64,000 nucleotides of DNA, from the sequence record PQ374922.1; one strand, 5' to 3'. Below, piece after piece: positions 935 to 50,800 of the stretch; the stretch's first letter is position 1, and every line of letters begins with the position of its first letter. Below the pieces are notes generated by a model, which saw only the letters and a program-made list of their open reading frames with translations, was not told the DNA's origin and made no database searches. This DNA comes from a phage. The position numbers were made by a program, and so were the translations under genes.

Positions 935-982
935 TTTCAATAACGGGGTGAGAGGTATTATTGCCCCGTCTACTATCCGAGG
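935..982 (+). repeat. promoter-like repeat element copy 2
   Basis: See copy 1. Confidence 0.6.
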
Positions 983-4283: not shown

Positions 4284-5067
4284 GTTCTCATCAAAGCAAC
4301 CTAAAGGTACGAGCTTCTGGAAGGGCTGGAACTCTTGCACGATGATGTCCAGCATACCCTTGTTACAAGTGGGAACGCTGGCCGACAACGTCACAGGTAC
4401 AGTGCGCACTTCTGGGTTCCAGAGTTCGGAAACAGAAATTATTGGCGTGACAAAGATGCGACAGCTCGTAAACAAGAGCATCGAGCATGCCAACAACAAT
4501 CTACTGATCCCGCGCATCAGGGTCACAAAATATCTCCACAGCAAAGGTGCTATTATGTCCAACGTACAATTTAAGAACGAAAACCCTAATTTCGCGGCGT
4601 CCGATAAGTGGCGTCTGACTATCGGAGACCTTGTACTCCTAACCCGTAACATCCACGACTTCAGTATACCAGGGGTGTACTCCGAAGGCATCGATGGTCC
4701 GTCTCCTGGTGACGTGTTGGTTTCTATACCTTCAGAGCGTTTAACCTATGATCCCGTCGTATTTACTTTCGTTATAGACGAGGACTGGAAATCATGGTTA
4801 CAGATCCACCAATGGATTACCAGCAACGTCGGCAAGGATTTGCCTGTCAGCAAGGACATTACCATTGAATTGCTGGATAACCTCAACCGACCGATTGGCC
4901 TCACTCTCGTGCTGGAGGAAGCCCGCCCGACTGCTTTGGACAACGTACTGGTGGACGTAGACGCAGCTGTACCTCAGCTGGTGACGACAGTGACCTTCAA
5001 GTTCCAACAGCTGGTTCCACTATCTGGTGGGAAGGCGATTGATTCTAATCCGCGAAATGCGGTATAA
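4252..5067 (+). CDS. hypothetical protein (271 aa from GTG; alternative ATG at 4555)
   Basis: GTG start preceded by AGGAGAGG at proper spacing; TAATAAATAC late-promoter-like element ~55 nt upstream. Confidence 0.45.
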   Translation: MVFQYGLRVLMFSSKQPKGTSFWKGWNSCTMMSSIPLLQVGTLADNVTGTVRTSGFQSSETEIIGVTKMRQLVNKSIEHANNNLLIPRIRVTKYLHSKGAIMSNVQFKNENPNFAASDKWRLTIGDLVLLTRNIHDFSIPGVYSEGIDGPSPGDVLVSIPSERLTYDPVVFTFVIDEDWKSWLQIHQWITSNVGKDLPVSKDITIELLDNLNRPIGLTLVLEEARPTALDNVLVDVDAAVPQLVTTVTFKFQQLVPLSGGKAIDSNPRNAV

Positions 5068-5097
5068 TTCTATGACATTGACAAGCTGGGATATTTT

Positions 5098-6340: not shown

Positions 6341-7849
6341 ATGGTAGACATTCAGATTGTTAAGGTTAACGAAGTCCGCATGCGTTGCATCGCAGATCTT
6401 TCTATCAGGGAAGAACTTAATGACTACTTCAAATTCGAAGACCCGAACTTCGTTCCCAACCCCTTTTCTAAATGGGACGGGGTTGTCCGCCTATTTACCA
6501 AGTCATCTGGTCTAATCGATATCGGTCTGCTGTTTGAGGTATTTAAGTTCTGTAAGAACAACGGATACACCATTGAACTGGATCCGGCACTGAAGTACAT
6601 TCAGGACATCCCAGATGAAGAAATCCGTGACTTCATCGACAGTCTGCATCCAAAGATCCGCACCGAAAATCACGAATATATCGATGCCGAGACTCGTGAC
6701 TACCAGTACGACACCATCGCCAAGGCTATGCGTCAAACCAGATGCGTCTGTGAACTGGCTACGAGTGCCGGTAAGTCCTTTATTCTGTATGTCATGGCGC
6801 GGTACTACAGGCGGCGCAGAGAAGCTCTCGAAAGTCCTCTGAAGACGCTTATCGTGGTGCCGTCAATCCACCTAGTCACTCAGCTGTACGACAACTTCGA
6901 AGAGTATGCACATGGCAGTGATTGGAAGCCCGTTGTTAACACCCAGCTGATTTTTGAGGGCGCGACAAAGGATATCAGCAAACCAATCGTCATCAGTACA
7001 TGGCAAGGCATTCAAGACCAGCCGAAGGAATGGTTCCACCAGTTCGGTGATATCGTGGTGGATGAAGTGCACACCTCCAAGTCTGAGAAACTGTCTTACA
7101 TCCTAAACAACTGCATCTATGCCGACCAGCGCCTGGGGGTTACAGGTACGCTGGCGAATACCAAAGTTGCCGGGCTTCAGGTGGTGGCTCACTTCGGGGC
7201 GTACCATAAGATCATCACGGCTCGCGATCTTATCAATCTCGGGTACGCCACTGACATCAAAGTGAAGATGATCCAGCTGAAGCACACTCCGGCGGATGCT
7301 GTTGGTCTGGACGGGGATTATTCCAAGGAAATAGAATACCTTATCACACACCAGTCCCGCAACGAACTGATCGCCAAGATGGCACTGAATCTGAAAGGAA
7401 ACGTGGCCATCATGTTCGAACGTATTGATGGTCACATGATGGTCGTGTATGATATGCTGAGCGCGGTCAAGCCCAACGTGTTTGTCATCAACGGGGAAGT
7501 AAAGATCGAAGACCGCCGCCGCATACAGAAAGCGATGGAGGATGGAGAGGACATCACCCTGTTGGCATCATACGGGACAATGCAGCAGGGAGTGTCGATC
7601 AAGAAGCTACACCACCTTGTACTGGCACACCCGAGCAAGTCATATATCCGCGTCATACAGACATTGGGTCGTCTGATGCGTCAGCACTCCTCTAAGGACG
7701 TCGCGTGGATATGGGACTTAGTGGATGATGCATCGTACAACGCCAGCACGAACCACGCTCTTAGGCACTCTCACGAGCGTTACAAGTTTTACCTGGCAGA
7801 GCGCCACCCTGTGGAGTTCATGAAGGTGGCGCTGGGTAATCACGATTAA
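6341..7849 (+). CDS. uvsW: SF2 DNA helicase, UvsW-like
   Basis: Walker A ATSAGKS, DEVH box, helicase C-terminal motifs; start at internal ATG with GGGAGA RBS (ORF track starts at 6248). Confidence 0.7.
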   Translation: MVDIQIVKVNEVRMRCIADLSIREELNDYFKFEDPNFVPNPFSKWDGVVRLFTKSSGLIDIGLLFEVFKFCKNNGYTIELDPALKYIQDIPDEEIRDFIDSLHPKIRTENHEYIDAETRDYQYDTIAKAMRQTRCVCELATSAGKSFILYVMARYYRRRREALESPLKTLIVVPSIHLVTQLYDNFEEYAHGSDWKPVVNTQLIFEGATKDISKPIVISTWQGIQDQPKEWFHQFGDIVVDEVHTSKSEKLSYILNNCIYADQRLGVTGTLANTKVAGLQVVAHFGAYHKIITARDLINLGYATDIKVKMIQLKHTPADAVGLDGDYSKEIEYLITHQSRNELIAKMALNLKGNVAIMFERIDGHMMVVYDMLSAVKPNVFVINGEVKIEDRRRIQKAMEDGEDITLLASYGTMQQGVSIKKLHHLVLAHPSKSYIRVIQTLGRLMRQHSSKDVAWIWDLVDDASYNASTNHALRHSHERYKFYLAERHPVEFMKVALGNHD

Positions 7850-8217
7850 TCTTGATTCACATAGGCGGGGGTGGCCTCGCCTTCATCAGTTACTACACCG
7901 AACAATTTGTCCAGAGAAGCCAGACATTGTGCGTTCAGGTGTTCACTGATCGTATCCTTCAGCATTTGTTCGCTGTTCAATTGGAATGGCAGAACCTTCG
8001 CTTCGATGCCGTTATCAAACGTCACAACGCCAACATACAGACCAACTTTCAGGCCTGTCATCAAGCCAAGGGGGACAAATCGCGGCTCCGATGGTAAGTT
8101 CTTGTCTGACGCCAGCTGTGTCAGATAAACTGGGGTGCCTGTGATAAATTGACCTGTGGTGAGGTTGGCGTCTGGCTTACTACACCCGACTGCGTATAAT
8201 CCTACGAACTGTTTCAT
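7846..8217 (-). CDS. hypothetical small protein, possible lipoprotein
   Basis: Minus-strand ORF with GAGAG RBS; N-terminus MKQFVGLYAVGC resembles a short lipobox; convergent with uvsW. Confidence 0.45.
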   Translation of the reverse strand: MKQFVGLYAVGCSKPDANLTTGQFITGTPVYLTQLASDKNLPSEPRFVPLGLMTGLKVGLYVGVVTFDNGIEAKVLPFQLNSEQMLKDTISEHLNAQCLASLDKLFGVVTDEGEATPAYVNQD

Positions 8218-8380
8218 ATATTACTCTCGTGTGTTGGTTAACATGACATACATATTATTTCGCGTGCATGTTTAGACCAAATAAATTATTTTTGTTGTTG
8301 AATAAAAACTGCTTTCTTGTTGAACAATGGCGTGGTATTATACGAGTTGTGAGCGTTAGCGAACAACGAGTATTTGTTTT

Positions 8381-8400
8381 ATGAGCGAAGCGAATAGGAT
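8381..8400. repeat. 20-mer atgagcgaagcgaataggat (copy 1), preceded by 12-mer tatttgttttat
   Basis: Exact reverse complement present at 53886-53905; 12-mer tatttgttttat also shared (8371-8382 and 53871-53882). Confidence 0.85.
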
Positions 8401-8408
8401 TAATAAAA

Positions 8409-8443
8409 GTTATTATCTTTAATAAGGTTATTATCTTTAATAA
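8409..8443. repeat. tandem direct repeat, 17-bp unit gttattatctttaataa x2
   Basis: Two identical 17-mers separated by 1 nt in the 360-bp intergenic region upstream of the clamp gene. Confidence 0.85.
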
Positions 8444-8449
8444 AGTCCA

Positions 8450-8470
8450 TAAATGCCGAAGGCATTTATT
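8450..8470. repeat. inverted repeat ataaatgcc-gaa-ggcatttat
   Basis: 9-bp perfect stem next to the tandem repeats. Confidence 0.7.
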
Positions 8471-8577
8471 AATAACGCGTAGCGCAATTTGCCACTTGTT
8501 CTATAAGCAAAACACAGCGATACTAGATTTCGTCAAACATGACTTGAACCACCACTATATTTTGAGGATACATACAA

Positions 8578-9246
8578 ATGCAAGAGATCACTCTCTCCGA
8601 ACGTACACTTCAGTTGCTGGCCAACTTTGAGACCATCAACCCATCTATCGTTCTGACACCGGGCAAGATGCTGCGCAGTATTAATGATTCTTCTACTGTG
8701 ATCGCCGTGGCGCAGATCGAAGAAGACTTCCCGTTTGAGTTCCCGATTCTGGACCTGACCAAACTTCTGGCCATCCAGCGCCTACCTTCCTTCAAAGGTG
8801 CCAAAGCCGAATTCCATCAGGACTACATCCTGTTGAAAGGTGAAAGTTCTCAGCTGCAATTCTGGCGTTCTGCTAAAGAACTCACGGTTGTCCCGGCTGA
8901 TACTATCGAACTGCCGTCTGTTGACTTTGAAGCGATCATCACTCCAGAGAAGATGAAAGAACTGACCCGCGCCTGTTCTACCCTCGGACATAAGACTGTG
9001 CGCCTGGTTGCTCAGGGTGGCAAAACTCGCCTGGTTGCAACCACCACTACCCTGGACAACTCCAACAACTACACTGTTGAGCTGGGTGAAACCGCGCTGC
9101 CGGACTTCGTAATGCCGCTGGATGTTGCCAACCTGAAAATGATCGAAGGCAACTACACTCTGCGTGCCTGTGCTGATCTACAGATGGTGAACTTCCAATC
9201 ATCCGACGCGACGATCAATTACTTCGTCGGCGCACAGATTGAGTAA
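8578..9246 (+). CDS. sliding clamp, T4 gp45-like
   Basis: 222 aa, E. coli-optimal codon usage, immediately upstream of clamp-loader ATPase; order 45-44-62-regA as in T4. Confidence 0.8.
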   Translation: MQEITLSERTLQLLANFETINPSIVLTPGKMLRSINDSSTVIAVAQIEEDFPFEFPILDLTKLLAIQRLPSFKGAKAEFHQDYILLKGESSQLQFWRSAKELTVVPADTIELPSVDFEAIITPEKMKELTRACSTLGHKTVRLVAQGGKTRLVATTTTLDNSNNYTVELGETALPDFVMPLDVANLKMIEGNYTLRACADLQMVNFQSSDATINYFVGAQIE

Positions 9247-9274
9247 TCAATCTCCAGCCTGATGCTATAATGTG

Positions 9275-9300
9275 TGGGCGGGGCGTTCCCCGCCTATTTG
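9275..9300 (+). terminator. hairpin plus T-rich tract after clamp gene, preceded by TATAAT
   Basis: gggcgggg-cgtt-ccccgcc then tatttg; TATAAT at 9265-9270. Confidence 0.45.
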
Positions 9301-9327: not shown

Positions 9328-10317
9328 ATGTCTAATATCACAATTGTAAAAGACCAGTATGCATGGGAAAACCGCTTCCGCCCTGACAACCTGGACGAGA
9401 TTATCATCCCTCAAGACGTCCGCGCTAAAATCCATGGCTACATCACCAGCGGCAACGGCAACATCCCGTCTATGCTGTTCTACTCCCCTCAGCCTGGTAC
9501 TGGCAAGACTACCTCCGCCCTGGCCGTGTGTAACGAGATCGGTTGTAAGCAACCACTGATGATCAACGCATCCCTGGACAACAGCATCGACGTTATCCGT
9601 GACCGCGTGATTCAGTACTCTACTGGTGTGAGCGTATTCGGTGGTCGCAAAGTCGTTATCCTCGACGAAGTAGAGCGTCTGTCTATGGCGGCACAGGAGT
9701 CGCTGAAGGGTATTGTGGAGAAGGTCTCCAAGAACTGTTCATTCATCCTGACCACCAACGCCAAGCAACGTGTGAACGAACCTCTGCGCTCTCGTTGCCG
9801 TGAAATCGACTTTATCTGGAATGAGACCGAGGCTGATGAGGTCAAACTTCAGTTCATGCGCCGCTGTGCTGAAATCCTTCGCTGCGAAGGTGTTGAGTAT
9901 GACCCTCCTGTGTTGGCTGCTATTGTCAAGCGCCATTTCCCTGATAACCGCCGCATCATGGGTGTTCTACAGGATAACGTCACCACTTACGGCAAGATCG
10001 ACGAACGTGCACTGGCTGTGTTAAAATCGGCCGATATGGGCATGTTGGTGAATATGTTGAAGGATAATGACTGGGCTGGGATGAAGCAGTGGGTGACCGA
10101 CAACCAGAACTATATCACTGAAGACTTCTATTCCCGCTTCTTCCAGTTCTGTGTACCACAGGATAAAGAGAAGCAAATGTTGGTTCAGAATGAGTCTATC
10201 CCTGATCTGGTATGTGTATGTGGTCAGTCTCAGATTGAACACCGTCAAGTCGGCGATGTCTGGCTGCATGCTGTGTTTTTCCTGACCAATGTCATGCTCA
10301 ACATCAAGTGGAAGTGA
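9328..10317 (+). CDS. clamp loader large subunit, T4 gp44-like AAA+ ATPase
   Basis: Walker A PQPGTGKTT, Walker B VVILDEVE, sensor motifs; 329 aa. Confidence 0.85.
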   Translation: MSNITIVKDQYAWENRFRPDNLDEIIIPQDVRAKIHGYITSGNGNIPSMLFYSPQPGTGKTTSALAVCNEIGCKQPLMINASLDNSIDVIRDRVIQYSTGVSVFGGRKVVILDEVERLSMAAQESLKGIVEKVSKNCSFILTTNAKQRVNEPLRSRCREIDFIWNETEADEVKLQFMRRCAEILRCEGVEYDPPVLAAIVKRHFPDNRRIMGVLQDNVTTYGKIDERALAVLKSADMGMLVNMLKDNDWAGMKQWVTDNQNYITEDFYSRFFQFCVPQDKEKQMLVQNESIPDLVCVCGQSQIEHRQVGDVWLHAVFFLTNVMLNIKWK

Positions 10318-10321
10318 TATT

Positions 10322-10744
10322 ATGGCCGCCCTTGGATTGTTCGATTACCTGGCTGCTCTGAACAGCAGCAAAGAAAACCTTTTGCGGTCTGATGACCCAG
10401 AAGTGTTGAAAGGATTCGACCCGTTTATGACGCGGCGTGGTTTAGCTCAGAGCAAAGACACTCTAGTGGCTGCGCAACAGATGAATAAGCTACATGCTAT
10501 CACTCCATGGATGCAATGGTCATATGCCTTTTACACCATTCCGGCTCGGAAACGCTACGACAAATGGTCTAAGAAAGGTCCGATTGATCCTGACGTGAAG
10601 TTACTCTCAGAGTACTTCTACATCAGCATGGAGAAGGCATCGGAGTACGTCCGTTTCTTGCCGAAGGAAGTCCTGGCCGAGATACGCGAGAAGATGAGAC
10701 GCACTGAGCTGAACGCCAAAGCGAAACCGCGCAAGGCTAAGTAG
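10322..10744 (+). CDS. clamp loader small subunit, gp62-like (by synteny)
   Basis: ATG overlapping gp44 stop region; position between gp44 and regA. Confidence 0.55.
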   Translation: MAALGLFDYLAALNSSKENLLRSDDPEVLKGFDPFMTRRGLAQSKDTLVAAQQMNKLHAITPWMQWSYAFYTIPARKRYDKWSKKGPIDPDVKLLSEYFYISMEKASEYVRFLPKEVLAEIREKMRRTELNAKAKPRKAK

Positions 10745-10773
10745 TTCAAACTATTGTAAAAGGGGAATGAGTC

Positions 10774-11238
10774 ATGGCGCGTAATACGCTAGACATATTG
10801 AATATTTCAGCAGTCAACGATGAGGCCAGCATCGTTGATTGTATGGTTGAAGTTCAATTGAACCAAGATCGGCCAGGTATATTCCTGGGGATCAAGGAAA
10901 CACTGAGTCGAATTGGGGTAAACACGCGCCAAGAGCCGAATACTCTGTATCAGACTTGCCATATTCTTCATAAGTGTGGTAAGTATTATATCGTCCACTT
11001 CAAGCATCTATTTATGCTGGACGGGCATTATAACGGATTTAACCGCGAAGATGTCCTGAGGATGAACCGAATCATCAAGCTGCTGGAGCAGTGGAACATG
11101 GTGAAGGTCATTCATCCTGAGCAGGTCACTGAAGCAGCCGATATGTCTCGCATTAAAGTGGTTAAACACGATCAGGTTCCTGAATGGAAACTGGTTCCAA
11201 AATACATCATCCGGCCTACGAAGGCAAAAAGCGAATAA
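10774..11238 (+). CDS. regA: translational repressor RegA
   Basis: Similarity to T4 RegA as recalled: LYQTCHILHKCGKYYIVHFKHLFMLDG vs T4 LYQSCHILQKKGLYYIVHFKEMLRMDG, C-terminal EWKLVPKY. Confidence 0.85.
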   Translation: MARNTLDILNISAVNDEASIVDCMVEVQLNQDRPGIFLGIKETLSRIGVNTRQEPNTLYQTCHILHKCGKYYIVHFKHLFMLDGHYNGFNREDVLRMNRIIKLLEQWNMVKVIHPEQVTEAADMSRIKVVKHDQVPEWKLVPKYIIRPTKAKSE

Positions 11239-11254
11239 CTGGAGTCGCTAAATC

Positions 11255-12127
11255 ATGACAACTACATTTTCCAAGAACGTGAATCTGAATCTGGCTTTCG
11301 GTAATGCAAAGGGCGACGTCACATCGCCCGACTTTGGTAAGATCCGCAATCAGGCGAAACTGGTGCTGGAAGAAACCCGTGAACTGCTGGAAGCGGCGTA
11401 TTTCGACCACGAGGTGAAAATTGAGTTCACTGCATCTCCGCGAGTCCTGAAAGAACCCGTTGTTGTCGACATCAAAGACATTATGCGCCAGATCATGGAT
11501 GCTCAGGGCGACATCACAACAGTCAACGACGGCGTGGCTCATATTGCTGGTTTCGACGGTGACGAATGCCTACAGCGCGTGTATGCCTCTAACATGAGCA
11601 AGTTCATCCGTAATGAAGGTGAAGTTGTGCCAGCACTGGATTACTACTACAACAAAGGATTCCCACGCGAAAGTCTACGCATCGAAGGGGAATTCCCTCA
11701 GGCGTGCATCAAAGTGGTAGACACCATCACCGTCGACGGCAAAGAATACCCGGCTGGCAAGTTCCTGAAGAACATGGCAACCTTCAAAGAGCCTGACTTC
11801 TCTGATATGTTGACCGCCGAGCCTAAGCGCCAGATCACCGAAATCATTCTGACAGGTACGGCTACCCCAGGTCGACTCGGATGCAACGAACACGCTGGTG
11901 TTGCCTACGCACCGTTCGATTTTATTGACGAGATCGTGGGATACACCAAGATGGGCTTCCAGGCGTTCTCTGGCGAAACAGTCGAGAGCTACATTCCCGT
12001 GTTTGTTTTCAATGAAGACAACTTCCCAACTCTACCGTTGATCTGGGGTGAATGGAAAGCCAACGTCCGTATCTATGTGGCCAGCCCAGTGCAATCATCT
12101 ATCACCCAACTGACCCGTATCGATTAA
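11255..12127 (+). CDS. hypothetical protein (290 aa)
   Basis: Occupies the slot where T4 has DNA polymerase; optimal codon usage; no polymerase motifs. Confidence 0.6.
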   Translation: MTTTFSKNVNLNLAFGNAKGDVTSPDFGKIRNQAKLVLEETRELLEAAYFDHEVKIEFTASPRVLKEPVVVDIKDIMRQIMDAQGDITTVNDGVAHIAGFDGDECLQRVYASNMSKFIRNEGEVVPALDYYYNKGFPRESLRIEGEFPQACIKVVDTITVDGKEYPAGKFLKNMATFKEPDFSDMLTAEPKRQITEIILTGTATPGRLGCNEHAGVAYAPFDFIDEIVGYTKMGFQAFSGETVESYIPVFVFNEDNFPTLPLIWGEWKANVRIYVASPVQSSITQLTRID

Positions 12128-12149
12128 GATATACAGTTGTTCACTAAAC

Positions 12150-12177
12150 AACAGAGGCTATAATGGCCTCTGTTTTC
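12150..12177 (+). terminator. terminator hairpin with TATAAT in loop
   Basis: cagaggc-TATAATg-gcctctg followed by ttttcg. Confidence 0.55.
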
Positions 12178-12195
12178 GTATTCTAAGAGGATACC

Positions 12196-13416
12196 ATGAA
12201 AGATAAAGCCCTGGACGTCCCGTACTGCGGTGTCCGTGAAGAAAAGATAAAGTCGGCCAAACCGGTTCTCAGTCCGACCCATACCTGCCTGTCTTACGAA
12301 TGGATGCGCGATCGTTATCAGATCCACGTCAAGAAGGACGTCCAGCGCCTTCCTGCTCCTTGGACTGATAATCCCATATTACGGCAGGTCAAGTTCTGTA
12401 ACGTCCGGAGAGAGCACGACAGGCAGTCTCTCAACCTGATCAACAACATCGTCAACAACGATGCTCTGGGTATGGCCGACAAGATGTTCAACTGCGTGTT
12501 GTTCCGCATGTTCAACCTCTGGGATCCAATCCAGGCTATCGGCGGCGCGATGACGATCAAAGAATTCGCCGAGATCAACCTCGATGCAACCCGCGAACGA
12601 CTTAAGAAGTTCGAGGCCGACGGCGGTAAGGTATTCACCAATGCCTTCAACACGGGCGGCCTGAAACAATGCCTGGCTTTCCCTGAGATGGTTGTCAACC
12701 ACAAGGAGCAGCGCTTCGGTGGGATGATGGTGAATCTGATCTGTAAAGATGGTTCAACCCAGAACATGGATTATAAAGAAGCCAAGGCGATAGCCGAAGC
12801 AGAACCGGACTTCTACACCATCGAAGGTTGGGAACCGTACATGCCAATGCGTGTCATCCGCTCCCTGAAGGCATTCGTCAACAAGTATCCAAATTACTTC
12901 CATGACCTGCTGCGCCTTGGTACTCCTTTGGAAGTATACCAGCGCATGTACGACGACATCGAAGGGCTTGGTCCATTCCTGGCCTATCAGATCTGGGTAG
13001 ACTTCACTTACATTCCTGAATATCCTTTCAGTGAGAACCACTTCACGGTTGCTGGACCAGGCTGTCGCGCAGGGATCGACCTGATGTTCCAGGACAAAGA
13101 TGGCATGACGCATGAAGAATGCATCTTCTGGTTGCGGGACAATCAGGACGCGGTTTATGGCCCTCTTGGGTATAACAGGGAAGAATTTTGGTCTGCGGAA
13201 GAGCCTTGGGATCAGTGTATGAATGTGATGAGCATCGAGAATATGGCATGTGAATTGTCGAAATATACTCGTTGTGTAGAGGCCATACAGCAAGGTAAAA
13301 AACCGCGCGGGAAGGTTGGATATGACGGCGGTGGGGAATACAAAAAGCGCTGTGATGAAGTCGTGCTCAAACGTGGTTCCGTCAATTTGCTGGACCGTTT
13401 GAAGAAACCTGAATAA
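12196..13416 (+). CDS. hypothetical protein (406 aa), candidate nucleic-acid modification enzyme
   Basis: Long ORF after terminator-promoter hairpin; no motif confidently recognised. Confidence 0.6.
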   Translation: MKDKALDVPYCGVREEKIKSAKPVLSPTHTCLSYEWMRDRYQIHVKKDVQRLPAPWTDNPILRQVKFCNVRREHDRQSLNLINNIVNNDALGMADKMFNCVLFRMFNLWDPIQAIGGAMTIKEFAEINLDATRERLKKFEADGGKVFTNAFNTGGLKQCLAFPEMVVNHKEQRFGGMMVNLICKDGSTQNMDYKEAKAIAEAEPDFYTIEGWEPYMPMRVIRSLKAFVNKYPNYFHDLLRLGTPLEVYQRMYDDIEGLGPFLAYQIWVDFTYIPEYPFSENHFTVAGPGCRAGIDLMFQDKDGMTHEECIFWLRDNQDAVYGPLGYNREEFWSAEEPWDQCMNVMSIENMACELSKYTRCVEAIQQGKKPRGKVGYDGGGEYKKRCDEVVLKRGSVNLLDRLKKPE

Positions 13417-13530
13417 AGATTCCCTTTACTTCGTTCTTCAATAACTCAATCCAGCGTATATTGACCTCACTTAAACGAAGCGCCCTGGCAAACGGGGCGC
13501 ACATTTGAACTGAAACAGGAAGATTACACC

Positions 13531-15549
13531 ATGTCAGATTTTAAGCCCTTCGCAGTAGCTGTCAACAATAACGTGCTGGCCATGTCAGCAACTGGTCTGT
13601 TCATGACCAACATCGATAAAGATGCTCTGTGGGATCTGTATCTGTCTTCTTTCCCTGCTGGCACTAACCCGCTTTATCGTGAGCGTACCGAGCACGACTG
13701 TACCTGCTGCAAACAATTCATCCGTAACATCGGCGGTGTAGTCACCATCGACTCCGATCTGAACGTGATCTCTATCTGGGATAACATTCAGCTGGGTAAC
13801 GAATACGACGTTGTCGCTGCGGCGCTGTCAGCATATGTTAAGCAGCACGCAATCGTCGACGTGTACTTCAACGACACCAAGAAAGTTGGTGTTGAATCGA
13901 ATCACGAAATGAAAGACGGTATTGTCCGCACCTACAACCACTTCCACACCGACCTGCTGGGCAGCTATGTTCTGCGGGCAGATACCATCGCTTCTAAGAA
14001 GGGTGAAATCCGCCAGGCGATTGAAGTGTTTGAGCGCGGCCTGCGTGAACTGTCTCTGGAATCGGCTGAAATCGTTCTGGAATTGATCGACCAGAATTCT
14101 CTGTATCGCGGTGAAGAGCACAAAGCGGCAGTGCAGGCGTTCGTGGTGAACAAGACCCTGTACGAACAAACTGCAGAAGAGAAACGCGCTCTGTGGGCTT
14201 GGCGCACTGGCTACCGTGCAAACGGTCATACCCCTCACGGCATTCGTAATACCGTGATTGGCTCTCTGCTGGTAGACCTCAATGAAGGCCGGGATCTGGA
14301 AACCGCCGTGAAGTCCTTTGAAGCCAAAGTCGCTCCGACGAACTACAAGCGCCCAACCGCGCTGGTCACGAAATCCATGATTGAAAACGCGCAGAAAGAA
14401 GTCGAAGCGCTGGGTCTGACTGATTCACTGGGTCGCCGTTATGCCGTGTATGACGATCTGACCATCAACAACGTTCTGTTCGCCGACCTAGCAGCTCAGA
14501 AGAAGATGGACCCGTTTGCTCAGCTGGCGTCTGAAGTGAAGACTCCGACCAAGTCCCTGGACAAGGTTGAAGAGATCACGATCGACGACTTCCTGACCAA
14601 CGTGTTGCCAAAGGCGCATTCCCTGGAAGTGCTGGTCGAAAACTCTCACATTGGCAACCTGATGTCCCTGATCGCTCCGGCCACCGCAGGCGCTCCTAAC
14701 CTGTTCAAGTGGAACAACGGCTTCAGCTGGTCGTACAATGGCGAAGTGGCCGACTCCATCAAAGAGCGCGTGAAGACCGCAGGCGGCAATGTCGACAGCT
14801 TCCTCCGTGTGTCACTGGCTTGGCATAACAACGACGACCTGGATCTGAGCCTGAACGATCCTCTTCACAACCACGTGTATTATCACAACCGTCGTTCGAC
14901 AACTGGCGCAACTCTAGACATCGACATGAACGGTATGGACGGCATTGATCCAAACCGCCGTCCGGTGGAGAACATCTTCTTCAGCGATGAACGCAAGCTG
15001 CGTGATGGTCTGTACGAGTTCTATGTCACTAACTTCAGCCAGCGTGAAACCTGTGATATGGGCTTCGAAATCGAAGTTGAATACAAAGGCCAGACCAAGC
15101 GTTTTTCGCATCCTGGCCTGAAGCACAAAGATCGCACTCTGGCTGTTGTGATTGATGTCCGCGCTGGACAAGTGGTAGACATCCGTTCTACCCTGAAAGA
15201 CGACGCTCGCTCTCAGGAAATCTGGGGCATCAAGACCTCCGTCTTCCAGAAGGTACAGCTGGTTCTGAACTCACCAAACCATTGGGACGGCGAGCAGACT
15301 GGCAACAAGCACGTGTTCTTCATCCTGGAAGGTTGTGCTAACCCTGTCGGCACCCGTGGTTTCTATAACGAATATCTGAAGCCGGAACTTGATAAACACC
15401 GCAAGGTTTTTGAAATGTTAGGTGGTAAGATTAAAGTACAGCCAAGCACTGAGCAGCTGTCCGGTCTGGGCTTCTCTACCACCCAACGCAACCACGTGTT
15501 CGTGAAGGTGAGCGGTTCGTTCAACCGCACTGTGAAAGTTGTGTTCTAA
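13531..15549 (+). CDS. hypothetical protein (672 aa), highly codon-optimised
   Basis: Long ORF with strongly E. coli-optimal codons; no Walker or polymerase motifs seen. Confidence 0.65.
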   Translation: MSDFKPFAVAVNNNVLAMSATGLFMTNIDKDALWDLYLSSFPAGTNPLYRERTEHDCTCCKQFIRNIGGVVTIDSDLNVISIWDNIQLGNEYDVVAAALSAYVKQHAIVDVYFNDTKKVGVESNHEMKDGIVRTYNHFHTDLLGSYVLRADTIASKKGEIRQAIEVFERGLRELSLESAEIVLELIDQNSLYRGEEHKAAVQAFVVNKTLYEQTAEEKRALWAWRTGYRANGHTPHGIRNTVIGSLLVDLNEGRDLETAVKSFEAKVAPTNYKRPTALVTKSMIENAQKEVEALGLTDSLGRRYAVYDDLTINNVLFADLAAQKKMDPFAQLASEVKTPTKSLDKVEEITIDDFLTNVLPKAHSLEVLVENSHIGNLMSLIAPATAGAPNLFKWNNGFSWSYNGEVADSIKERVKTAGGNVDSFLRVSLAWHNNDDLDLSLNDPLHNHVYYHNRRSTTGATLDIDMNGMDGIDPNRRPVENIFFSDERKLRDGLYEFYVTNFSQRETCDMGFEIEVEYKGQTKRFSHPGLKHKDRTLAVVIDVRAGQVVDIRSTLKDDARSQEIWGIKTSVFQKVQLVLNSPNHWDGEQTGNKHVFFILEGCANPVGTRGFYNEYLKPELDKHRKVFEMLGGKIKVQPSTEQLSGLGFSTTQRNHVFVKVSGSFNRTVKVVF

Positions 15550-15593
15550 ACCTGATTTGAAATTGTAACCCATTCATCATTGAGGATAGTAAA

Positions 15594-15965
15594 ATGTTTG
15601 ATAAAGCAACCCGTATGAAACTGCGCTTCGAGTCTAACAAAGGTCTGCTGTCTGTTGAGCAGGTCTGGGACCTGAGCCTGACTGCCCTGAACGAAATGGC
15701 GAAAGGTCTGAGCCGTCAGGTGAAAGCAGCAGAAACCGATGAAGAAGATTTCATTGGTACCAAAAGCAACGTTGACTCCGAACTGCAGCTGCGCTTCGAC
15801 GTTGTCAAGCACATCATCGGCGTTAAGCTGAAAGAACGTGACGACAGCAGAGAAGCGGCAGAGCGTAAGGCGAACAACCAGGTTATCCTGGAGCTGATCC
15901 AGCGTAAGAAACAGCAAGAGCTGGAAAGCAAATCTGTTGAAGAACTGGAAGCGCTGCTGAAATAA
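15594..15965 (+). CDS. hypothetical charged alpha-helical protein (123 aa)
   Basis: AGGA RBS; followed by strong rho-independent terminator. Confidence 0.55.
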   Translation: MFDKATRMKLRFESNKGLLSVEQVWDLSLTALNEMAKGLSRQVKAAETDEEDFIGTKSNVDSELQLRFDVVKHIIGVKLKERDDSREAAERKANNQVILELIQRKKQQELESKSVEELEALLK

Positions 15966-15987
15966 CCCTGTTGGCCTCGGCCTGAGC

Positions 15988-16016
15988 AACCCCGCCATGT
16001 GCGGGGTTTCTTTTGG
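15988..16016 (+). terminator. rho-independent terminator
   Basis: aaccccgc-catgt-gcggggtt followed by tcttttgg. Confidence 0.7.
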
Positions 16017-16954: not shown

Positions 16955-17062
16955 GTTTGTCAAAACCTTTTCAATATCAATAACGTCCAGCGTAAATGCT
17001 GGGCGTTTCAATTTGTGCATCACAGTATAATACGGCTGTACAATACACCATGAGGCTACATT

Positions 17063-17917
17063 ATGTTTCGTTTGAAATTGAACGACCAAGATGTGTTCTA
17101 CAAACACTTCACCTTCCCAGGTGGTGAGGAACATATCAAGATTCAAAAGTCTGGTATCCCTATCGGCCACGTTCAGAACGTGGCGATTGATGCTCACATC
17201 AAATCATCGGCTGACTTCATTGAGCTGGCGCTTCTGGTAAACGCCGTTCGTGGTCTGGGTAACGTGGACCGTCTGACGACATTCCATGCGTATATCCCTT
17301 ACTTCCCGTATGCTCGCCAGGACCGCCATTGTGACTTCGGTGAGCCTCTGTCTGTGAAGTGGGCGGCTGAGTTCATCAATAGCATGAACTTTGACCGCGT
17401 GGCGATCAAAGATCCTCACAGCCATGTTGTGTCTTCTCTGATCAACAACGTCCATGTTGTCCCGCAAGATTACATCGTGCGTCAGTATCTGGGCTGGTTC
17501 ATCCGTGGGAACAACGCTGTGTTGGTAGCCCCTGACGGCGGCGCGGCTAAGAAGACCGAAGCCCTCAGTCTGTCGTTGGACGGTGTTCCTGTTGTCTACG
17601 GTCACAAGAACCGTGACACCAAGACTGGTGAGATCATTGGGGTGAGTATTACGAACCCTGAACTGATCAAAGACCGCTATCTGGTGGTGGTCGATGATAT
17701 CTGCGACGGTGGGCGCACGTTCGTTGAGTTAGGCAAAGAGCTTCAGAAGCACAAGCCTAAGCACATGACGCTCTTCGTTACCCATGGCATCTTCAGCAAA
17801 GGTCTCTCTGTTTTCGACGGGATCTATGATGCTGTGTATGCCGACACTGTCTGGTGGGAGAACATCACCGCCGACGGGCTTCCTTTCAAAACTGAAAATA
17901 CAGGACGTGTAAAATGA
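17063..17917 (+). CDS. ribose-phosphate pyrophosphokinase (PRPP synthetase) family; Prs or ADP-ribose pyrophosphokinase (Adps)-like
   Basis: IPYFPYARQDR and PRPP-binding VVVDDICDGGRTF motifs; 284 aa, shorter than cellular Prs. Confidence 0.85.
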   Translation: MFRLKLNDQDVFYKHFTFPGGEEHIKIQKSGIPIGHVQNVAIDAHIKSSADFIELALLVNAVRGLGNVDRLTTFHAYIPYFPYARQDRHCDFGEPLSVKWAAEFINSMNFDRVAIKDPHSHVVSSLINNVHVVPQDYIVRQYLGWFIRGNNAVLVAPDGGAAKKTEALSLSLDGVPVVYGHKNRDTKTGEIIGVSITNPELIKDRYLVVVDDICDGGRTFVELGKELQKHKPKHMTLFVTHGIFSKGLSVFDGIYDAVYADTVWWENITADGLPFKTENTGRVK

Positions 17918-19578
17918 GCATGCGCCACTTAGACCCAATCCATGCGATCGACTTCTACAAATCGGGGCACATCTATCAGTTCCCTGAAGGCAGTGAGCTG
18001 GTGTTCTCCAACGGAACTCCGCGCTCTAACAAACTGTTCAACTCTCACCTGCCGAAGAACGGCGTGGTGGTCTGGGGCATCCAGGGCTTCATGACCTGGT
18101 TCCACGAACTGTTTGACGAAGCATTCTTCCAGCGCCCGAAGGCCAAGGTGCTGAAGAAGTATGCCCGTCGCATGAACAAAGTCCTGGGTCCAGGCCGCGT
18201 CGGCACAGAGCATATTGAAGCCCTGCATGACCTCGGCTACCTGCCTATCGAAGTCCGTGCGCTGCCTGAAGGCACCATGTGTCCGTATGGCGTTCCGGTG
18301 TATGTGATGTTCAATACCCTGCCGGAGTTCTACTGGCTGACCAACTATCTGGAGACTGTGTTCAGCTCTGAGATCTGGAAGCCGATGACGAACGCCACCA
18401 TAGCTCTGCATTACAAGGCACTGATGGTGAAAGCTGCCCTCGCTACGGGAGTATCACCAGACCATTGGTTCATCGACTACCAAGGTCACGACTTCTCCTT
18501 CCGTGGTATGAGCGGGTGGCATGACGCCGCGTCTTCCGGTTCCGGTCATCTGGTGTTCTTCAAAGGCACCGACACCAACCCTGCCCTGGACTTCGTAGAA
18601 GAGTATTATGGCGCAGACATCGACGAAGACTATGTCGTTGCTGGGTCGGTTGCCGCAACGGAACATGCGGTGATGTGTATGGGCACGAAGGATGGTGAAT
18701 TCGAAACCTTCCGCCGCCTGGTGCAGGACGTGTATCCTGATGGCATCGTCAGCATCGTGTCTGATGCGTGGGATTACTGGCAGGTCATCGACGACTATCT
18801 GCCTCGCCTGAAAGACATTATCATGGCGCGCAATGGTAAAGTCGTGATCCGCCCCGACTCGGGCGACCCTGTACACATCGTCGGCGGCTACCGCATCGAG
18901 GGGTTCAAAGACCGCGCTACGCTGAACATCAGCGGCGTGTCTAGCAGCACCGAAGTTATCCACATCGAAGAGACGAACACCTATCACCTGATCACAGGCG
19001 AAGGCACGATCAACTCTCTGATGGCAGATGACCGTAATATCATCAGCCGTTCAGAAGCGGTCGGCTCTATCCAGCGCCTGTGGGAGATCTTTGGTGGCAC
19101 CCAGACTGAAACTGGGCACTTCCTGTTGGATGAGCACATCGGCCTGATCTACGGTGATTCTATCACCCTGGCGCGTGAAGACCAGATCTTTAGCCGTCTG
19201 GCTGACCGGAACTTCGCTTCCATCAACGTGGTGTTCGGTATCGGTTCCTACACCTACCAGATGAACACCCGTGACAGTACTGGCACAGCAGTGAAAGCCA
19301 CGGCTGGTAAAGTGAACGGTGAATTCCGTGAGATCTTCAAAGAGCCGAAGACCGATAAAGGCGGGACTAAAAAGTCTGCGCGTGGTTTCCTTAAAGTCAT
19401 TAAAGACCCTCAGGGTAAACTAGTGTTGGTTGACGGTATCACTTTTGATCAGGTGCAAGACGCCGACAACCAGCACCAGCTGGTGTATCGTGATGGCGAG
19501 TTCTTCAATACTCAAACACTGGAAGATGCGCGTGTTCGTGCTGCTCCTCTGGTGACGGAACTGGCATCACAAATCTGA
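17914..19578 (+). CDS. nicotinamide phosphoribosyltransferase family (NadV/NAMPT or Namat-like)
   Basis: 554-aa ORF translationally coupled to Prs-like gene (ATGA overlap); recognised as NAMPT-type phosphoribosyltransferase by overall sequence pattern. Confidence 0.8.
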   Translation: MSMRHLDPIHAIDFYKSGHIYQFPEGSELVFSNGTPRSNKLFNSHLPKNGVVVWGIQGFMTWFHELFDEAFFQRPKAKVLKKYARRMNKVLGPGRVGTEHIEALHDLGYLPIEVRALPEGTMCPYGVPVYVMFNTLPEFYWLTNYLETVFSSEIWKPMTNATIALHYKALMVKAALATGVSPDHWFIDYQGHDFSFRGMSGWHDAASSGSGHLVFFKGTDTNPALDFVEEYYGADIDEDYVVAGSVAATEHAVMCMGTKDGEFETFRRLVQDVYPDGIVSIVSDAWDYWQVIDDYLPRLKDIIMARNGKVVIRPDSGDPVHIVGGYRIEGFKDRATLNISGVSSSTEVIHIEETNTYHLITGEGTINSLMADDRNIISRSEAVGSIQRLWEIFGGTQTETGHFLLDEHIGLIYGDSITLAREDQIFSRLADRNFASINVVFGIGSYTYQMNTRDSTGTAVKATAGKVNGEFREIFKEPKTDKGGTKKSARGFLKVIKDPQGKLVLVDGITFDQVQDADNQHQLVYRDGEFFNTQTLEDARVRAAPLVTELASQI

Positions 19579-19585: not shown

Positions 19586-19609
19586 AGGGGAGGCAACTCC
19601 CCTGTTTTG
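19586..19609 (+). terminator. rho-independent terminator after NAMPT-like gene
   Basis: aggggag-gcaa-ctcccct followed by gtttt. Confidence 0.7.
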
Positions 19610-23064: not shown

Positions 23065-23079
23065 TTCTATAACTTTGGG

Positions 23080-23107
23080 CGGGGTATGATTACCCCGTCT
23101 ATTTGAA
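23080..23107 (+). terminator. hairpin plus T-rich tract
   Basis: cggggta-tgat-taccccg then tctatttg. Confidence 0.45.
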
Positions 23108-23123
23108 ACCAAGAGACTATATC

Positions 23124-23498
23124 ATGAAAAAGTTAATCCTCGCTGTTGCCCTGCTGGGCGCTTCCTTTGCTGCTGTTTCCGCCCCTCCTGTCATCACCGG
23201 AGTGTCTACCAACGGTGTTTATGCTTTCAAGGCGTATGGCCAAGACCTCGTTCTGTATAAGAACGGGAAGATGATTGAGCGCTGCGTATCAGACGACGTG
23301 AATCGTGGGATCGACAATCAGGGCAGCCCATACGTCCTGGACATCTATTCCTGCTCTAACGGGACGAAGTCCTTTGGCGTCAAGACCTTTGGCAACGTCG
23401 CCGACGGTGGCTGGGGCTTCATGTTCGAAACCCGCAACCACCACCCGGTCAAGACCATGCAAGAAGAGTTCTTGATCTCTGTCGGGGGTACGTTATGA
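23124..23498 (+). CDS. secreted protein with signal peptide (124 aa)
   Basis: N-terminus MKKLILAVALLGASFAAVSA; conserved ctatatcATG start context. Confidence 0.55.
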   Translation: MKKLILAVALLGASFAAVSAPPVITGVSTNGVYAFKAYGQDLVLYKNGKMIERCVSDDVNRGIDNQGSPYVLDIYSCSNGTKSFGVKTFGNVADGGWGFMFETRNHHPVKTMQEEFLISVGGTL

Positions 23499-25555: not shown

Positions 25556-26422
25556 ATGCTCCTGACCAAAACAATCGCTGCGGCGATTATCGAAAAGAAT
25601 AAGGCTTTTGCCCCCAACGCAGCCAAAGTTATGTTGGTACACGAAGACGCTCGCGTGATCTTCGCCGAGAAGTTCGAGATGGGCGCGAAGTTCTGGTATG
25701 CCGACAACTTGCGTGAGAGCAAACTTCAGGGTATCATCCACAAACTGACTCTGGTCGCCAAGCGTAATGACCAGGGTGACTGGGTCGGCGTTTCTGACTT
25801 CAGTACGAAGATCACCCCAAAGGCTCCGCTTTCTCGTCAAGAGCGCATTCTGGAAGCCCAGGAAAAGCTGCGTGCGGCTCGGAGTACCCCAAAGGCGAAA
25901 CCAGATGCAAGCCCTGTCATCAAGCCAGCGGTTGTTCCTAAGTCCAAATACCTCCCGCCCGTGAGTCAAAAGGCTGTGGAGCAATTGGTCGAGAAGCGCA
26001 AGGGTGACGTTGTGATGAAGTCTGACTCTTCAGTGGAGCCGTTCAAGCCGGATCCAGCAGAAGTACAGGCGCTGGCAGAAAAGGTAAAGAATTCACAATT
26101 CATTTCCTTGCGTGAACTTGAACCGCCTACTCGCCGTCGTGTCGCCAACGAGCTGTTTGTGTCGTTCAGGTCGGATGGCAAGATCGTCCTGTGCAAAGCC
26201 CTGCGCGATGCAATCCCTTGGACAACTCTGAACATGATGGTCACTCGCGACTTCAAGCGTTTTGGTATCATGCAAGGCAAGGACTACAACGTCAACCAGA
26301 GCGGGACTTATGTTAATCGCGCCATGTGTGACAAACTGACCTTCCCAGAAGATACCGGAACGATCCGTGTCGTTCTGAACTGGGACGACAAGCTGAACAT
26401 GTATGTTGGCGATTTCCAATAA
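25556..26422 (+). CDS. hypothetical protein (288 aa)
   Basis: AAGGA RBS; Lys/Pro-rich central linker. Confidence 0.55.
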   Translation: MLLTKTIAAAIIEKNKAFAPNAAKVMLVHEDARVIFAEKFEMGAKFWYADNLRESKLQGIIHKLTLVAKRNDQGDWVGVSDFSTKITPKAPLSRQERILEAQEKLRAARSTPKAKPDASPVIKPAVVPKSKYLPPVSQKAVEQLVEKRKGDVVMKSDSSVEPFKPDPAEVQALAEKVKNSQFISLRELEPPTRRRVANELFVSFRSDGKIVLCKALRDAIPWTTLNMMVTRDFKRFGIMQGKDYNVNQSGTYVNRAMCDKLTFPEDTGTIRVVLNWDDKLNMYVGDFQ

Positions 26423-26478
26423 TCAATAACCTCGGGCGGCTTATCATAAAGCTGCCCTTTCATTTGAGTGACTATATC

Positions 26479-30648: not shown

Positions 30649-30693
30649 AGTTTCATTCCTCTTTCTATAAAACCAGTTTGGGATATTTATATC

Positions 30694-37571: not shown

Positions 37572-37624
37572 AAATAATTCAATAAAAGGGGCTTTCGCCC
37601 CTTTACTTCTTCAATATCCTTCCC

Positions 37625-37645: not shown

Positions 37646-37678
37646 TACGACACCAACTTGAATAGCAGGAACTATATC

Positions 37679-41826: not shown

Positions 41827-41883
41827 GTCAATACGAAATAAAGGCATATAATTTTGCTCATTATTCACCGAAAGGAAAGGACA

Positions 41884-44409: not shown

Positions 44410-44606
44410 AACTTTTTACTTCACATCACTTCCCTCTAGGCCTCATTCGACGAGGCCTTTTAAAATACTTCAAAAATAATTTTTTAAAAATTATTGAAAA
44501 AGACTTTACTCTTCAATAATGATGCACTATTATAGTTCACATAGGGCGGCAACACACCGCCGAATGAAAAGTGAAATGAACCAACTACATTATGAGGAAT
44601 TACATC

Positions 44607-47019: not shown

Positions 47020-47102
47020 GTAACTCGCCAACCCTCCCCGCCGCCTTCAATCTACGAGGGCGGCGTATAATAAAACCTGCGTAAACAAACCCGAGGAACA
47101 CC

Positions 47103-50793: not shown

Positions 50794-50800
50794 CAAGCCA

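Follow-up and report, generated by a model that had tools for sequence, protein, structure and literature searches.

Several spacers between the genes of the phage studied here probably hold short hairpins at which one transcript would end and whose loop contains a start signal for the gene that follows. We interpret these elements as composite promoter/stem-loop cassettes that correspond in function to the PeSL and PmSL elements known from T4-like phages, a reading to which we assign, from the sequence comparisons described below, a probability of roughly 0.65. The cassettes are built on a bipartite motif consisting of a TTCAAT(AA) box, 14 (12-15) bp and a TAnnnT hexamer in the place of a -10 element, and in 6 of the 13 motif copies in the window (the whole analysed stretch of 64,000 nucleotides, sequence record PQ374922.1) the -10 lies in the loop of a strong GC-rich hairpin. 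The motif family is apparently undescribed as a promoter.

The genome stretch and its relatives

The phage is a ViI-like member of the Ackermannviridae, subfamily Aglimvirinae, and shares 98.9% identity with Escherichia phage A221 over bases 10000-16000 (283 matching phage records). The genes of the window are mostly located on the + strand and belong to replication, recombination and nucleotide metabolism (gp45, gp44/62, regA, uvsY, uvsW, gp46/47, gp55, gp33, gp32, nrdAB, td and primase), and a few late structural genes are found on the - strand. The phage also encodes a homologue of RegA and a protein with a RegB-like annotation. There are 52 intergenic spacers, together 5.6 kb.

The annotation was transferred from A221 and Mutine and completed with our own gene calls. 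Syntenic regions were compared in Mutine (Kuttervirus), Coodle (Limestonevirus), Klebsiella phage phi1_146021, Serratia IME250 (Taipeivirus), Erwinia Ea2809 (Nezavisimistyvirus) and Salmonella pSal-SNUABM-02 (Agtrevirus; SNUABM02 in the following), where the orthologous spacers were found via the flanking proteins.

Hairpins with -10-like hexamers

A first-pass annotation of this DNA had pointed to six intergenic hairpins with TATAAT within or next to the loop. All six are present, with coordinates that differ by 1-2 bases from those given originally, and they have folding energies of -12.7 to -19.8 kcal/mol and z-scores of -3.5 to -5.4 relative to dinucleotide shuffles. The z-scores of the hairpins that we take to be selected as RNA extend from -2.4 to -5.4. 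No Rfam family matched anywhere in the window.

A -10-like hexamer is centred in the loop of 7 of the 39 intergenic + strand hairpins (dG <= -7), and in 6 of these 7 a TTCAAT-like box is found 12-15 nt upstream. The remaining one (28084, TACAAT) lacks both a box and conservation of its loop, and it thus provides an internal control. The exact TATAAT occurs in loops in 3 of its 9 intergenic copies, for which a rough estimate of our own gives p ~0.01, and taken alone the enrichment of exact TATAAT adjoining hairpins is only weakly significant. The recurrent arrangement pointed out earlier is nevertheless not a product of chance; the case against chance is made by the spacing between box and hexamer and by conservation, not by the adjacency of TATAAT alone.

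The bipartite motif

In a k-mer enrichment analysis all 10 of the + strand copies of TTCAATAA were intergenic (p = 3e-11), and TTTACT and TATAAT were enriched too. The histogram of box-to-hexamer distances peaks at N14 with 12 matches on the gene strand, 9 of them intergenic, whereas each other spacing has 0-4 matches and the opposite strand has 1. The 9 strict intergenic matches at N14 compare with 0.28 +/- 0.53 in dinucleotide shuffles (0 of 1000 reached 9), an excess of about 30-fold, and for N12-15 the shuffles predict 1.12 intergenic matches where 15 were observed. With up to two mismatches, TTCAAT-N14-TATAAT gave 21 matches vs 4.24 +/- 2.14 (a number reached in 0 of 100 shuffles), and a control scan at N17 remained at background with 7 matches vs 4.44. 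TTCAATAA followed by 12 nt and TAnnnT is present in 9 intergenic copies.

If the hexamer occupies -12 to -7, the box falls at about -32 to -27. The units sit in spacers of 50-110 nt, in which the box frequently adjoins the stop codon; the elements are found 20-100 nt before a start codon, usually with the preceding stop codon directly upstream, and in every case they are oriented in the sense of the downstream gene. The genes behind the motif include the clamp loader, nrdA, gp32, the thymidylate cluster, the primase region and the 5-hmdU kinase. The distance from box to hexamer is constant whatever the position of the hairpin, which covers the -10 at 12150, 23076, 26434, 57823, 62823 and 943, covers the box at 47039, lies upstream (16982) or downstream (9274, 13480) of the motif, or is absent (41827).

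This constant distance, together with a degeneration of the hexamer like that of a -10 and the fit of orientation and position to the downstream gene, is the reason why the motif is read as a promoter, which would be an unusual one, since a 14-bp spacer is too short for region 4 of sigma-70 to reach a -35 element and a further factor would therefore be required. The spacing also means that these are not ordinary sigma-70 promoters, and a standard sigma-70 scan, which found no excess over shuffles, missed the TTCAAT class. The TATAAT copies named in the first-pass annotation as -10 elements are members of the motif at five of the six sites, the one at 50801 being the exception, but their description as -10 elements of hairpin units had overlooked the TTCAAT box upstream and its 14-bp spacing. 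The units are collected in Table 1.

Table 1. Boxes, hexamers and hairpins of the predicted units in the window, with their neighbouring genes.
Position	Strand	Elements	Neighbouring genes	In first-pass annotation
12140-12145	+	box TTCACT (TTCAAT in Klebsiella and Serratia phages), 13 nt before the -10, centred at about -30		
12159-12164	+	TATAAT in hairpin loop; primary site		yes
12150-12176	+	RNA hairpin AACAGAGGCTA/TGGCCTCTGTT + TTTT; -15.8 kcal/mol, z = -5.4	between MazG-like gene (11255-12127) and 5-hmdU DNA kinase gene (12196-13416)	yes
57810-57840	+	TTCAAT (57810-57815), 12 nt, TATAAT (57828-57833) in loop of hairpin 57823-57840	upstream of gp32-like ssDNA-binding protein gene	yes
62813-62858	+	TTCAAA (TTCAAT in relatives), 15 nt, TATAAT (62834-62839), hairpin 62823-62851 (-19.7 kcal/mol), then TTTTGTTTATT	upstream of 62870-63529 and thymidylate synthase cluster	yes
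47039-47071	+	hairpin 47039-47065 with TTCAAT (47046-47051) in loop, 14 nt, TATAAT (47066-47071) directly after 3' arm; no U tract	upstream of nrdA	yes
9246-9297	+	ATCAAT (9246-9251), 14 nt, TATAAT (9266-9271), hairpin 9274-9297 (3 nt downstream of -10), TTTGAAA	between gp45 clamp and gp44 clamp-loader genes	yes
50800-50848	+	hairpin 50800-50822, its T tract forming -35 TTTACT (50820-50825), 17 nt, TATACT (50843-50848)		yes
23065-23101	+	TTCTAT, 14 nt, TATGAT (23085-23090) in loop of hairpin 23076-23101		no
26422-26457	+	ATCAAT, 14 nt, TATCAT (26442-26447) in loop of hairpin 26434-26457, then TTTCATTTG		no
60661-60698	+	TTCTAT, 14 nt, GATAAT (60681-60686) in loop of imperfect hairpin (-11.5 kcal/mol), no U tract		no
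936-969	+	TTCAAT, 14 nt, TATTAT (956-961) in loop of hairpin 943-969		no
16982-17031	+	hairpin 16982-17007 adjoining TTCAAT (17007-17012), 13 nt, TATAAT (17026-17031)	upstream of NAD-salvage module 17063-19578	no
13437-13462	+	TTCAAT, 14 nt, TATATT; no overlapping hairpin, nearest at 13480-13500 in predicted leader		
41827-41852	+	GTCAAT, 14 nt, TATAAT; at most a weak hairpin	upstream of 41884-42495 and primase gene	

Conservation in the Ackermannviridae

In eight orthologous spacers, whose copies are not independent of each other in these counts, identity to the window was 0.94 for the -10, 0.87 for the box, 0.75 for the spacer between them, 0.70 for the next 20 nt and 0.67 elsewhere, so that -10 and box are the best conserved intergenic positions. 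The TTCAAT N14 peak is found in all six relatives (N14/15 in Ea2809), and each genome has 3-6 copies of the TTCAAT class with the -10 embedded in a loop. Orthologous -10 elements differ only at positions 3-5, for example as TATCAT, TATTAT or TATAAT, and keep T1, A2 and T6. Stems unrelated to those of the window occur at 19667 in the Klebsiella phage, at 18160 and 36669 in the Serratia phage and at 1613, 12356 and 49166 in Ea2809, and the stems of paralogous copies differ in register.

In the 12150 unit the stem arms cagaggc and gcctctg occupy 12152-12158 and 12166-12172, and the hairpin was terminator-like in our scan. Within 12128-12195 the box, the hairpin, the loop TATAAT and the T tract are invariant in relatives, and hence there is no covariation at this site; the TATAAT is the same in Mutine, Coodle, Klebsiella phi1_146021, Serratia IME250 and SNUABM02, and the box is kept in five relatives from four other genera, with a variable stretch between stop codon and box. 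Judged from the usual distance between -10 and +1, the transcript is predicted to start at about 12171-12173, in the 3' arm. At 57810, positions 2-6 of the box (TCAAT) and the -10 are invariant in three relatives, and the hairpin is degenerate in Mutine. The 9246 unit has its box kept in relatives, with TATAAT, TATTAT or TTTAAT as -10, and the 60661 unit keeps GATAAT and the outer stem in Mutine, Coodle and the Klebsiella phage. The -10 of the 26422 unit is TATCAT, TATTAT or TATAAT among relatives. The TATGAT at 23065 is kept in orthologues from phage genomes and IMG/VR contigs; a pattern scan of IMG/VR for this unit returned 31 loci, of which 9 were true relatives with little variation in the stem, and the other 22 were chance matches without hairpins and served as a negative control. 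The unit at 47046 matches the motif with 0 mismatches. The unit at 936 has a paralogous copy (81% identical) at 674-721 on the other side of the ORF 730-930, with its motif at 675.

Pairing of the stems and termination

The level at which the stems act was addressed by a symmetric test of pairing. When G.T pairs were allowed, 35 sites with 48 G.T pairs were found, compared to 23 sites with 6 A.C pairs when A.C was allowed and 22 sites with Watson-Crick pairs alone. Since the stems covary and G.T greatly outnumbers A.C, the comparison argues that they are selected as sense-strand RNA, that is, as terminator or 3'-end hairpins, and the selected RNA would come from upstream, because both arms must be included. 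The hairpin at 9274 covaries (GGCGGGG/CCCCGCC vs GCAGGGG/CCCCTGT), the stem at 26434 has a compensatory change in SNUABM02 (GGGCGAC/GTCGCCC), and the changes in the stems of orthologues are G.U to G-C or A-U at 62823 and G-C to G.U at 23076. In the nrdA hairpin (47039) 6 of 11 pairs have compensatory double changes in Mutine or Ea2809 and none is broken in the main stem, according to an RNAalifold set that includes the differently sequenced hairpin of Ea2809. The RNAalifold result for the 26434 orthologues was left out, since MAFFT shifted the register in two sequences and the "broken" pairs were artefacts.

At least 5 T in the nine bases after the stem are found in 4 of 6 loop-type hairpins, similarly to plain terminators. 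A hairpin followed by a U-rich tract is clear at 12150, 26434, 62823 and 50800; the tract is weak at 57823, 23076 and 9274 and absent at 47039, 943 and 60668, and the elements are therefore not all intrinsic terminators. The T tracts that had been ascribed to the six hairpins thus hold for 12150, 62823 and 50800, but there is none at 47039, and the one at 57823 is lost in relatives.

The TTTACT class and late promoters

The 50800 unit is predicted to be an early, sigma-70-like promoter adjoining a hairpin. Its TTTACT and TATACT are kept in Coodle and in the Klebsiella and Serratia phages. The TATAAT at 50828-50833, initially taken as the -10, falls in the spacer and has not been kept in the Klebsiella and Serratia phages, although the unit itself is real. 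Further members of this TTTACT-N17 class, which precedes small ORFs of unknown function, are found at 22499, 24447, 37602, 44505 and 1948; the TTTACT box has its spacing peak exactly at N17 in the relatives of the window, in all six genomes, and the -10 of this class is almost never in a hairpin loop. The TTTACT-N17-TATACT units (50800, 37585 and 1942 in the window) match TTTACW-N17-TAYWAT, the early-promoter consensus of the T4/PST PeSLs (PMC4122927).

Upstream of the late structural genes, (T/C)ATAAATA is found at 36-46 nt from the start codon, and TTCAATAA was on these grounds rejected as a late (gp55) promoter. The TTCAAT box is also observed inside the spacers of TTTACT promoters and directly before hairpins without a -10, and the role of the box may exceed that of a -30 promoter element.

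Alternative explanations

If the hairpins were ordinary intrinsic terminators, with AT-rich loops that resemble TATAAT by chance or composition and without any promoter, the weak enrichment of the exact hexamer beside hairpins would be expected, as would a clearly fortuitous loop like that at 28084, and it would fit that public records label the orthologues solely as terminators (in Mutine those of the 12150 and 62813 units). We consider this improbable, since the box precedes six of the seven loop hexamers at 12-15 nt, the excess at N14 is about 30-fold over shuffles, the loop hexamers are at the top of intergenic conservation, and their orientation always matches the downstream gene. Moreover, the Mutine orthologue of the 57810 unit has kept the hexamer though its hairpin decayed. 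The loops themselves are also of another kind: the GC-rich hairpins with T-rich tails at 12150, 26434, 62823 and 50800 have the stability and z-scores typical of intrinsic terminators, but loop-type units have -10-like sequences of 6-7 nt where the plain terminators of the window use stable tetraloops of GNRA or UUCG type (GCAA, GAAA, TTCG). A signal acting in RNA, such as nut-like antitermination of the boxA/boxB style or a site for a phage RNA-binding protein or ribonuclease, is unlikely in our view, yet it accounts for several features. Lambda nut sites have a similar layout of box plus hairpin, in which a linear box is followed after a few bases by a hairpin with conserved loop and variable stem, and here a conserved 8-mer and a short spacer precede hairpins of variable stem and conserved loop, the stems are selected in sense-strand RNA, and TTCAATAA stands directly before hairpins without a -10 at 1934, 37578, 22527 and 16977. 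A RegA homologue and the RegB-like protein could provide such a binding protein or ribonuclease, and the CBA120 paper raises antitermination for delayed-early genes (PMC3184105). However, what is constant is the distance from box to hexamer, also outside the hairpin, and not the position of the hexamer within a loop (9246, 13437, 17007, 41827 and 47046), the hexamer degenerates and behaves like a sigma-70 -10 (T1, A2 and T6 kept), and the elements are located 20-100 nt before start codons and usually after a stop codon, where a promoter is needed. We know of no N-like protein here.

A hairpin could alternatively form in the DNA, as a cruciform promoter with a single-stranded -10 like those of the phage N4 virion RNA polymerase or of conjugative plasmids. 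The placement of the -10 exactly in the loop in 3-6 copies per genome would suit this model, as would the hairpins without a U tract, for which termination is not the sole role, but it is very unlikely, since both strands of a cruciform must pair and 48 G.T pairs stand against 6 A.C, the promoter motif also occurs without an overlapping hairpin, and no phage RNA polymerase was found among the ten proteins scanned. It is likewise very unlikely that the elements are chiefly recombination linkers, kept for the exchange of modules as proposed for PeSLs, with regulation as a secondary matter. The 48-nt direct repeats (674-721/935-982), 81% identical, flank the ORF 730-930; the NAD-salvage module, which the closest relative lacks and whose proteins are 91-96% identical to those of a Klebsiella phage, lies between a hairpin/promoter unit and a terminator; and homing-endonuclease genes are inserted directly behind cassettes at two sites in relatives. 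Most cassettes, however, have in common only the short box and the hexamer with unrelated stems, which is too little homology, and many are located between core genes whose order is fixed across genera. A linker role is in any case compatible with the promoter/stem-loop reading and not opposed to it.

Relation to known elements

The concept of a promoter/terminator cassette, including the overlap with the -10, is already known from the PeSL and PmSL elements of T4-like phages; the present units depart from these in belonging to another phage family, in using the TTCAAT(AA) box with 14 bp to the -10, and in standing before core genes of replication. In the PeSLs of RB49 and phi1 a strong promoter is joined to a terminator of the stem-loop type (Arbiol et al. 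2010, PMC2839356), and both activities were shown by lacZ fusions (PMC2839356). Their stem-loop may lie between -35 and -10, over either box, upstream or downstream, most commonly between the boxes or over the -10 (PMC2839356). Comeau et al. (2014) extended the PeSLs to T4/PST and nt-1/KVP40 and added the PmSLs, which have a Mot box (PMC4122927). The units described here resemble PeSLs in being intergenic, between stop codon and Shine-Dalgarno sequence, in pairing a predicted promoter with a GC-rich stem-loop that would affect transcription arriving from upstream, in the variable register of the stem-loop, with all PeSL positions represented, and in having G-T pairs in the stems. An association with small variable ORFs and indels may be a further parallel, suggested by the repeats, the NAD-salvage module and the endonuclease genes described above, although most units stand between core genes of fixed order. 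They differ in that the loop-type units have TTCAAT at 14 bp instead of the sigma-70-like -35, 17 bp and -10, that they mostly precede conserved core genes and not hyperplastic ORFan regions, and that the stems are not of the G(n)/C(n) type; their promoter and terminator activities are predictions from the sequence, and any formation of mini-circles would be hypothetical.

The PmSLs of Vibrio phage nt-1 and the MotA-dependent middle promoters of T4 have a box at -30, about 12 bp (with a box of 8-9 nt) and a TAnnnT -10. The PmSLs likewise combine the promoter with stem-loops, and the T4 middle promoters are similarly found before delayed-early and middle genes. In T4 middle promoters TAnnnT follows 11-13 bp after the box, a geometry also found in TTCAATAA-12 nt-TAnnnT, but it is TTCAATAA that stands at -30 and not the Mot box (a/t)(a/t)(a/t)TGCTT(t/c)A. 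An N4-type DNA hairpin promoter does not describe the units, in view of the pairing in sense-strand RNA and of the ten proteins without an RNA polymerase.

The motif is not mentioned in the early papers on ViI-like phages. The CBA120 paper found neither early nor middle promoters identifiable by informatics and no MotA or AsiA homologues in ViI-like phages (PMC3184105). Others relied on consensus sequences from E. coli or T4: the AG3 paper listed eight sigma-70-like and some late promoters (PMC3121705), and the LIMEstone paper transferred T4 consensus sequences (PMC3296691). In the literature library that we searched there was no transcript map, transcriptome or promoter motif of an Ackermannviridae phage, and later work outside it is possible.

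Proposed mechanism

In the mechanism that we propose, a GC-rich inverted repeat overlies the promoter, so that its 5' arm would mostly be the spacer, its loop the -10 and its 3' arm the start region. RNA arriving from upstream would fold the repeat into a hairpin and, where a U tract is present, transcription would terminate; a hairpin without a U tract would at least provide a stable 3' end for the upstream RNA. Transcription from the embedded promoter would begin roughly 7 nt downstream of the hexamer, within the 3' arm or T tract, and the new RNA, which lacks the 5' arm, would escape its own terminator and read into the next gene, while the upstream RNA is stopped. A putative phage factor would read the TTCAAT box. 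Promoter activity, start site, termination, middle timing and the box-reading factor are all predictions from the DNA. The first-pass annotation had suggested that one element both stops and restarts transcription, and the comparative evidence agrees with this insofar as a terminator-like RNA hairpin is combined with a conserved promoter-like -10 in an element of about 45 bp at five of the six sites; its terminating half is less general, given the several hairpins without a U tract. The accompanying idea, that the 5' stem-loop stabilises the new mRNA, does not suit the loop-embedded -10 elements, where the start would fall in the 3' arm or T tract, and a 5' stem-loop is possible only where the hairpin follows the -10 (9274, 13480 and 44545).

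T4 middle promoters serve genes of the replication and nucleotide-metabolism type. By analogy, the TTCAAT class, which precedes a gene set of this kind, may be of middle timing. It is tempting to speculate, although we hold it to be tentative and rather doubtful as a whole, that TTCAAT(AA)-N14-TAnnnT is a middle-promoter class of the entire Ackermannviridae, used by the host RNA polymerase together with a putative phage protein that binds the -30 box, as an analogue of sigma appropriation independent of MotA and AsiA. One factor could then switch early promoters off and middle promoters on, which is conceivable because the TTCAAT box is also present inside the spacers of TTTACT early promoters, and the -10 in the loop would be a timing device. 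With regard to the factor, no sigma or RNA polymerase domain was detected in ten proteins of the window (Pfam, PHROGs), which covers 64 kb of the ~153 kb that the genome of the closest relative measures; a 406-aa protein was recognised as 5-hmdU DNA kinase, and the other scanned proteins gave nothing relevant. The labels "sigma factor" and "RNA polymerase" that some public records give to neighbouring genes found no counterpart in the Pfam/PHROGs scan.

Significance

The surprise of the finding is limited, as promoter/terminator cassettes are already a known idea. The overlap of a -10 with a terminator loop would nevertheless make a very compact insulator that could serve synthetic biology as well as phage engineering, in which an inserted gene has to be supplied with a stop and a start signal of its own. 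If the reading as a timing device is true, early read-through would be blocked exactly where middle transcription later starts. For the ViI-like phages, which find wide use against Salmonella, E. coli O157, Klebsiella and Dickeya, the conserved bipartite motif offers a concrete and testable map of transcription units, and it points to a putative transcription factor.

Further copies of the box and −10 pair

An exact TTCAAT-N14-TATAAT, the arrangement of the proposed middle-type class, lies at 56638-56663 within the gene for the RuvC-like resolvase, some 120 nt upstream of the next gene, and may be an internal promoter. A variant, TTCTAA-N14-TATAAT, is found at 5043-5068, where the spacer holds a small hairpin (CCGC gaaat GCGG); this unit overlaps the tail-completion gene at its stop codon, with uvsY just downstream, and was also scored in the sigma-70 scan as TTGATT-18-TATAAT. 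In the AT-rich non-coding region of 516 nt (8062-8577) between the divergent genes 7846-8061 (− strand) and gp45 (8578, + strand), a hairpin at 8449-8469 looks bidirectional, and there is a TTCTATAA box at 8499.

The same design is shared by Mutine (Kuttervirus) and Erwinia phage Ea2809, but in other registers. In the Mutine region retrieved (L004, 10845-10880), GTCAATAA is followed by a hairpin whose loop carries TATAAT at a spacing of only 7 nt, and the unit comes after a homing-endonuclease gene inserted upstream of nrdA. The gp45/gp44 spacer of Ea2809 has TATAAT in the hairpin loop; in the window, TATAAT lies 5' of the hairpin there.

Repeats, a possibly exchanged module and DNA modification

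Two direct repeats of 48 nt each (674-721 and 935-982; 81% identity) stand on either side of a small ORF (730-930), and both carry a −10-like hexamer along with a TTCAATAA box. This arrangement resembles an ORFan flanked by PeSLs, the promoter-early stem-loop cassettes of T4-like phages. A module of two genes (17063-19578), bordered by a hairpin/promoter unit (16982-17031) and a terminator (19586-19603), is missing from the closest relative, A221; the orthologues in Klebsiella phage phi1_146021, with protein identities of 96% and 91%, are annotated as ribose-phosphate pyrophosphokinase and nicotinamide phosphoribosyltransferase.

Directly 3' of the primary site, the hairpin with TATAAT in its loop, is a 5-hmdU DNA kinase gene (12196-13416; PF18723, E = 4e-81), which implies hypermodified thymidine in the phage DNA, and this could affect recognition of T-rich promoter elements.

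Late promoter cores and candidate operators

Structural or late genes, namely gp54, a virion protein gene and those for the baseplate hub and the RuvC-like resolvase, have a late promoter core of the T4 type (TATAAATA or CATAAATA) 36-46 nt upstream (Table).

Table. Positions of recurrent motifs in the window
Feature	Position	Strand
T4-type late promoter core	59937-59944	-
T4-type late promoter core	30684-30691	-
T4-type late promoter core	53812-53819	-
T4-type late promoter core	2902-2909	+
T4-type late promoter core	56145-56152	+
(A/T)CTATATC-ATG start context	1225-1235	
(A/T)CTATATC-ATG start context	23116-23126	
(A/T)CTATATC-ATG start context	26471-26481	
(A/T)CTATATC-ATG start context	37671-37681	
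(A/T)CTATATC-ATG start context	50891-50901	
TTTACT element with TTC(A/T)ATA box	13425-13444	
TTTACT element with TTC(A/T)ATA box	37602-37617	
TTTACT element with TTC(A/T)ATA box	44505-44519	
TTTACT element with TTC(A/T)ATA box	50820-50832	

Five genes have the near-identical start context (A/T)CTATATC-ATG in common, and all occurrences of this 11-mer in the window are true gene starts. The context could be a translational operator; a RegA homologue is encoded at 10774-11238. The gene for the gp32-like ssDNA-binding protein has in its predicted leader a hairpin with strong conservation, ACAGAATAGCCC-N4-GGGGCGG (57868-57890); by analogy with T4 gene 32, this hairpin may be an autoregulatory operator.

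A TTC(A/T)ATA box starts 0-6 nt past the −35 in four TTTACT elements of the window. Three of them are predicted TTTACT-N17 early-type promoters (e.g. TTTACTTCTTCAATAT), and the element at 13425 lacks a −10 at that spacing. Relatives conserve the box, which may be an operator, in which case one factor would repress early and activate middle promoters.
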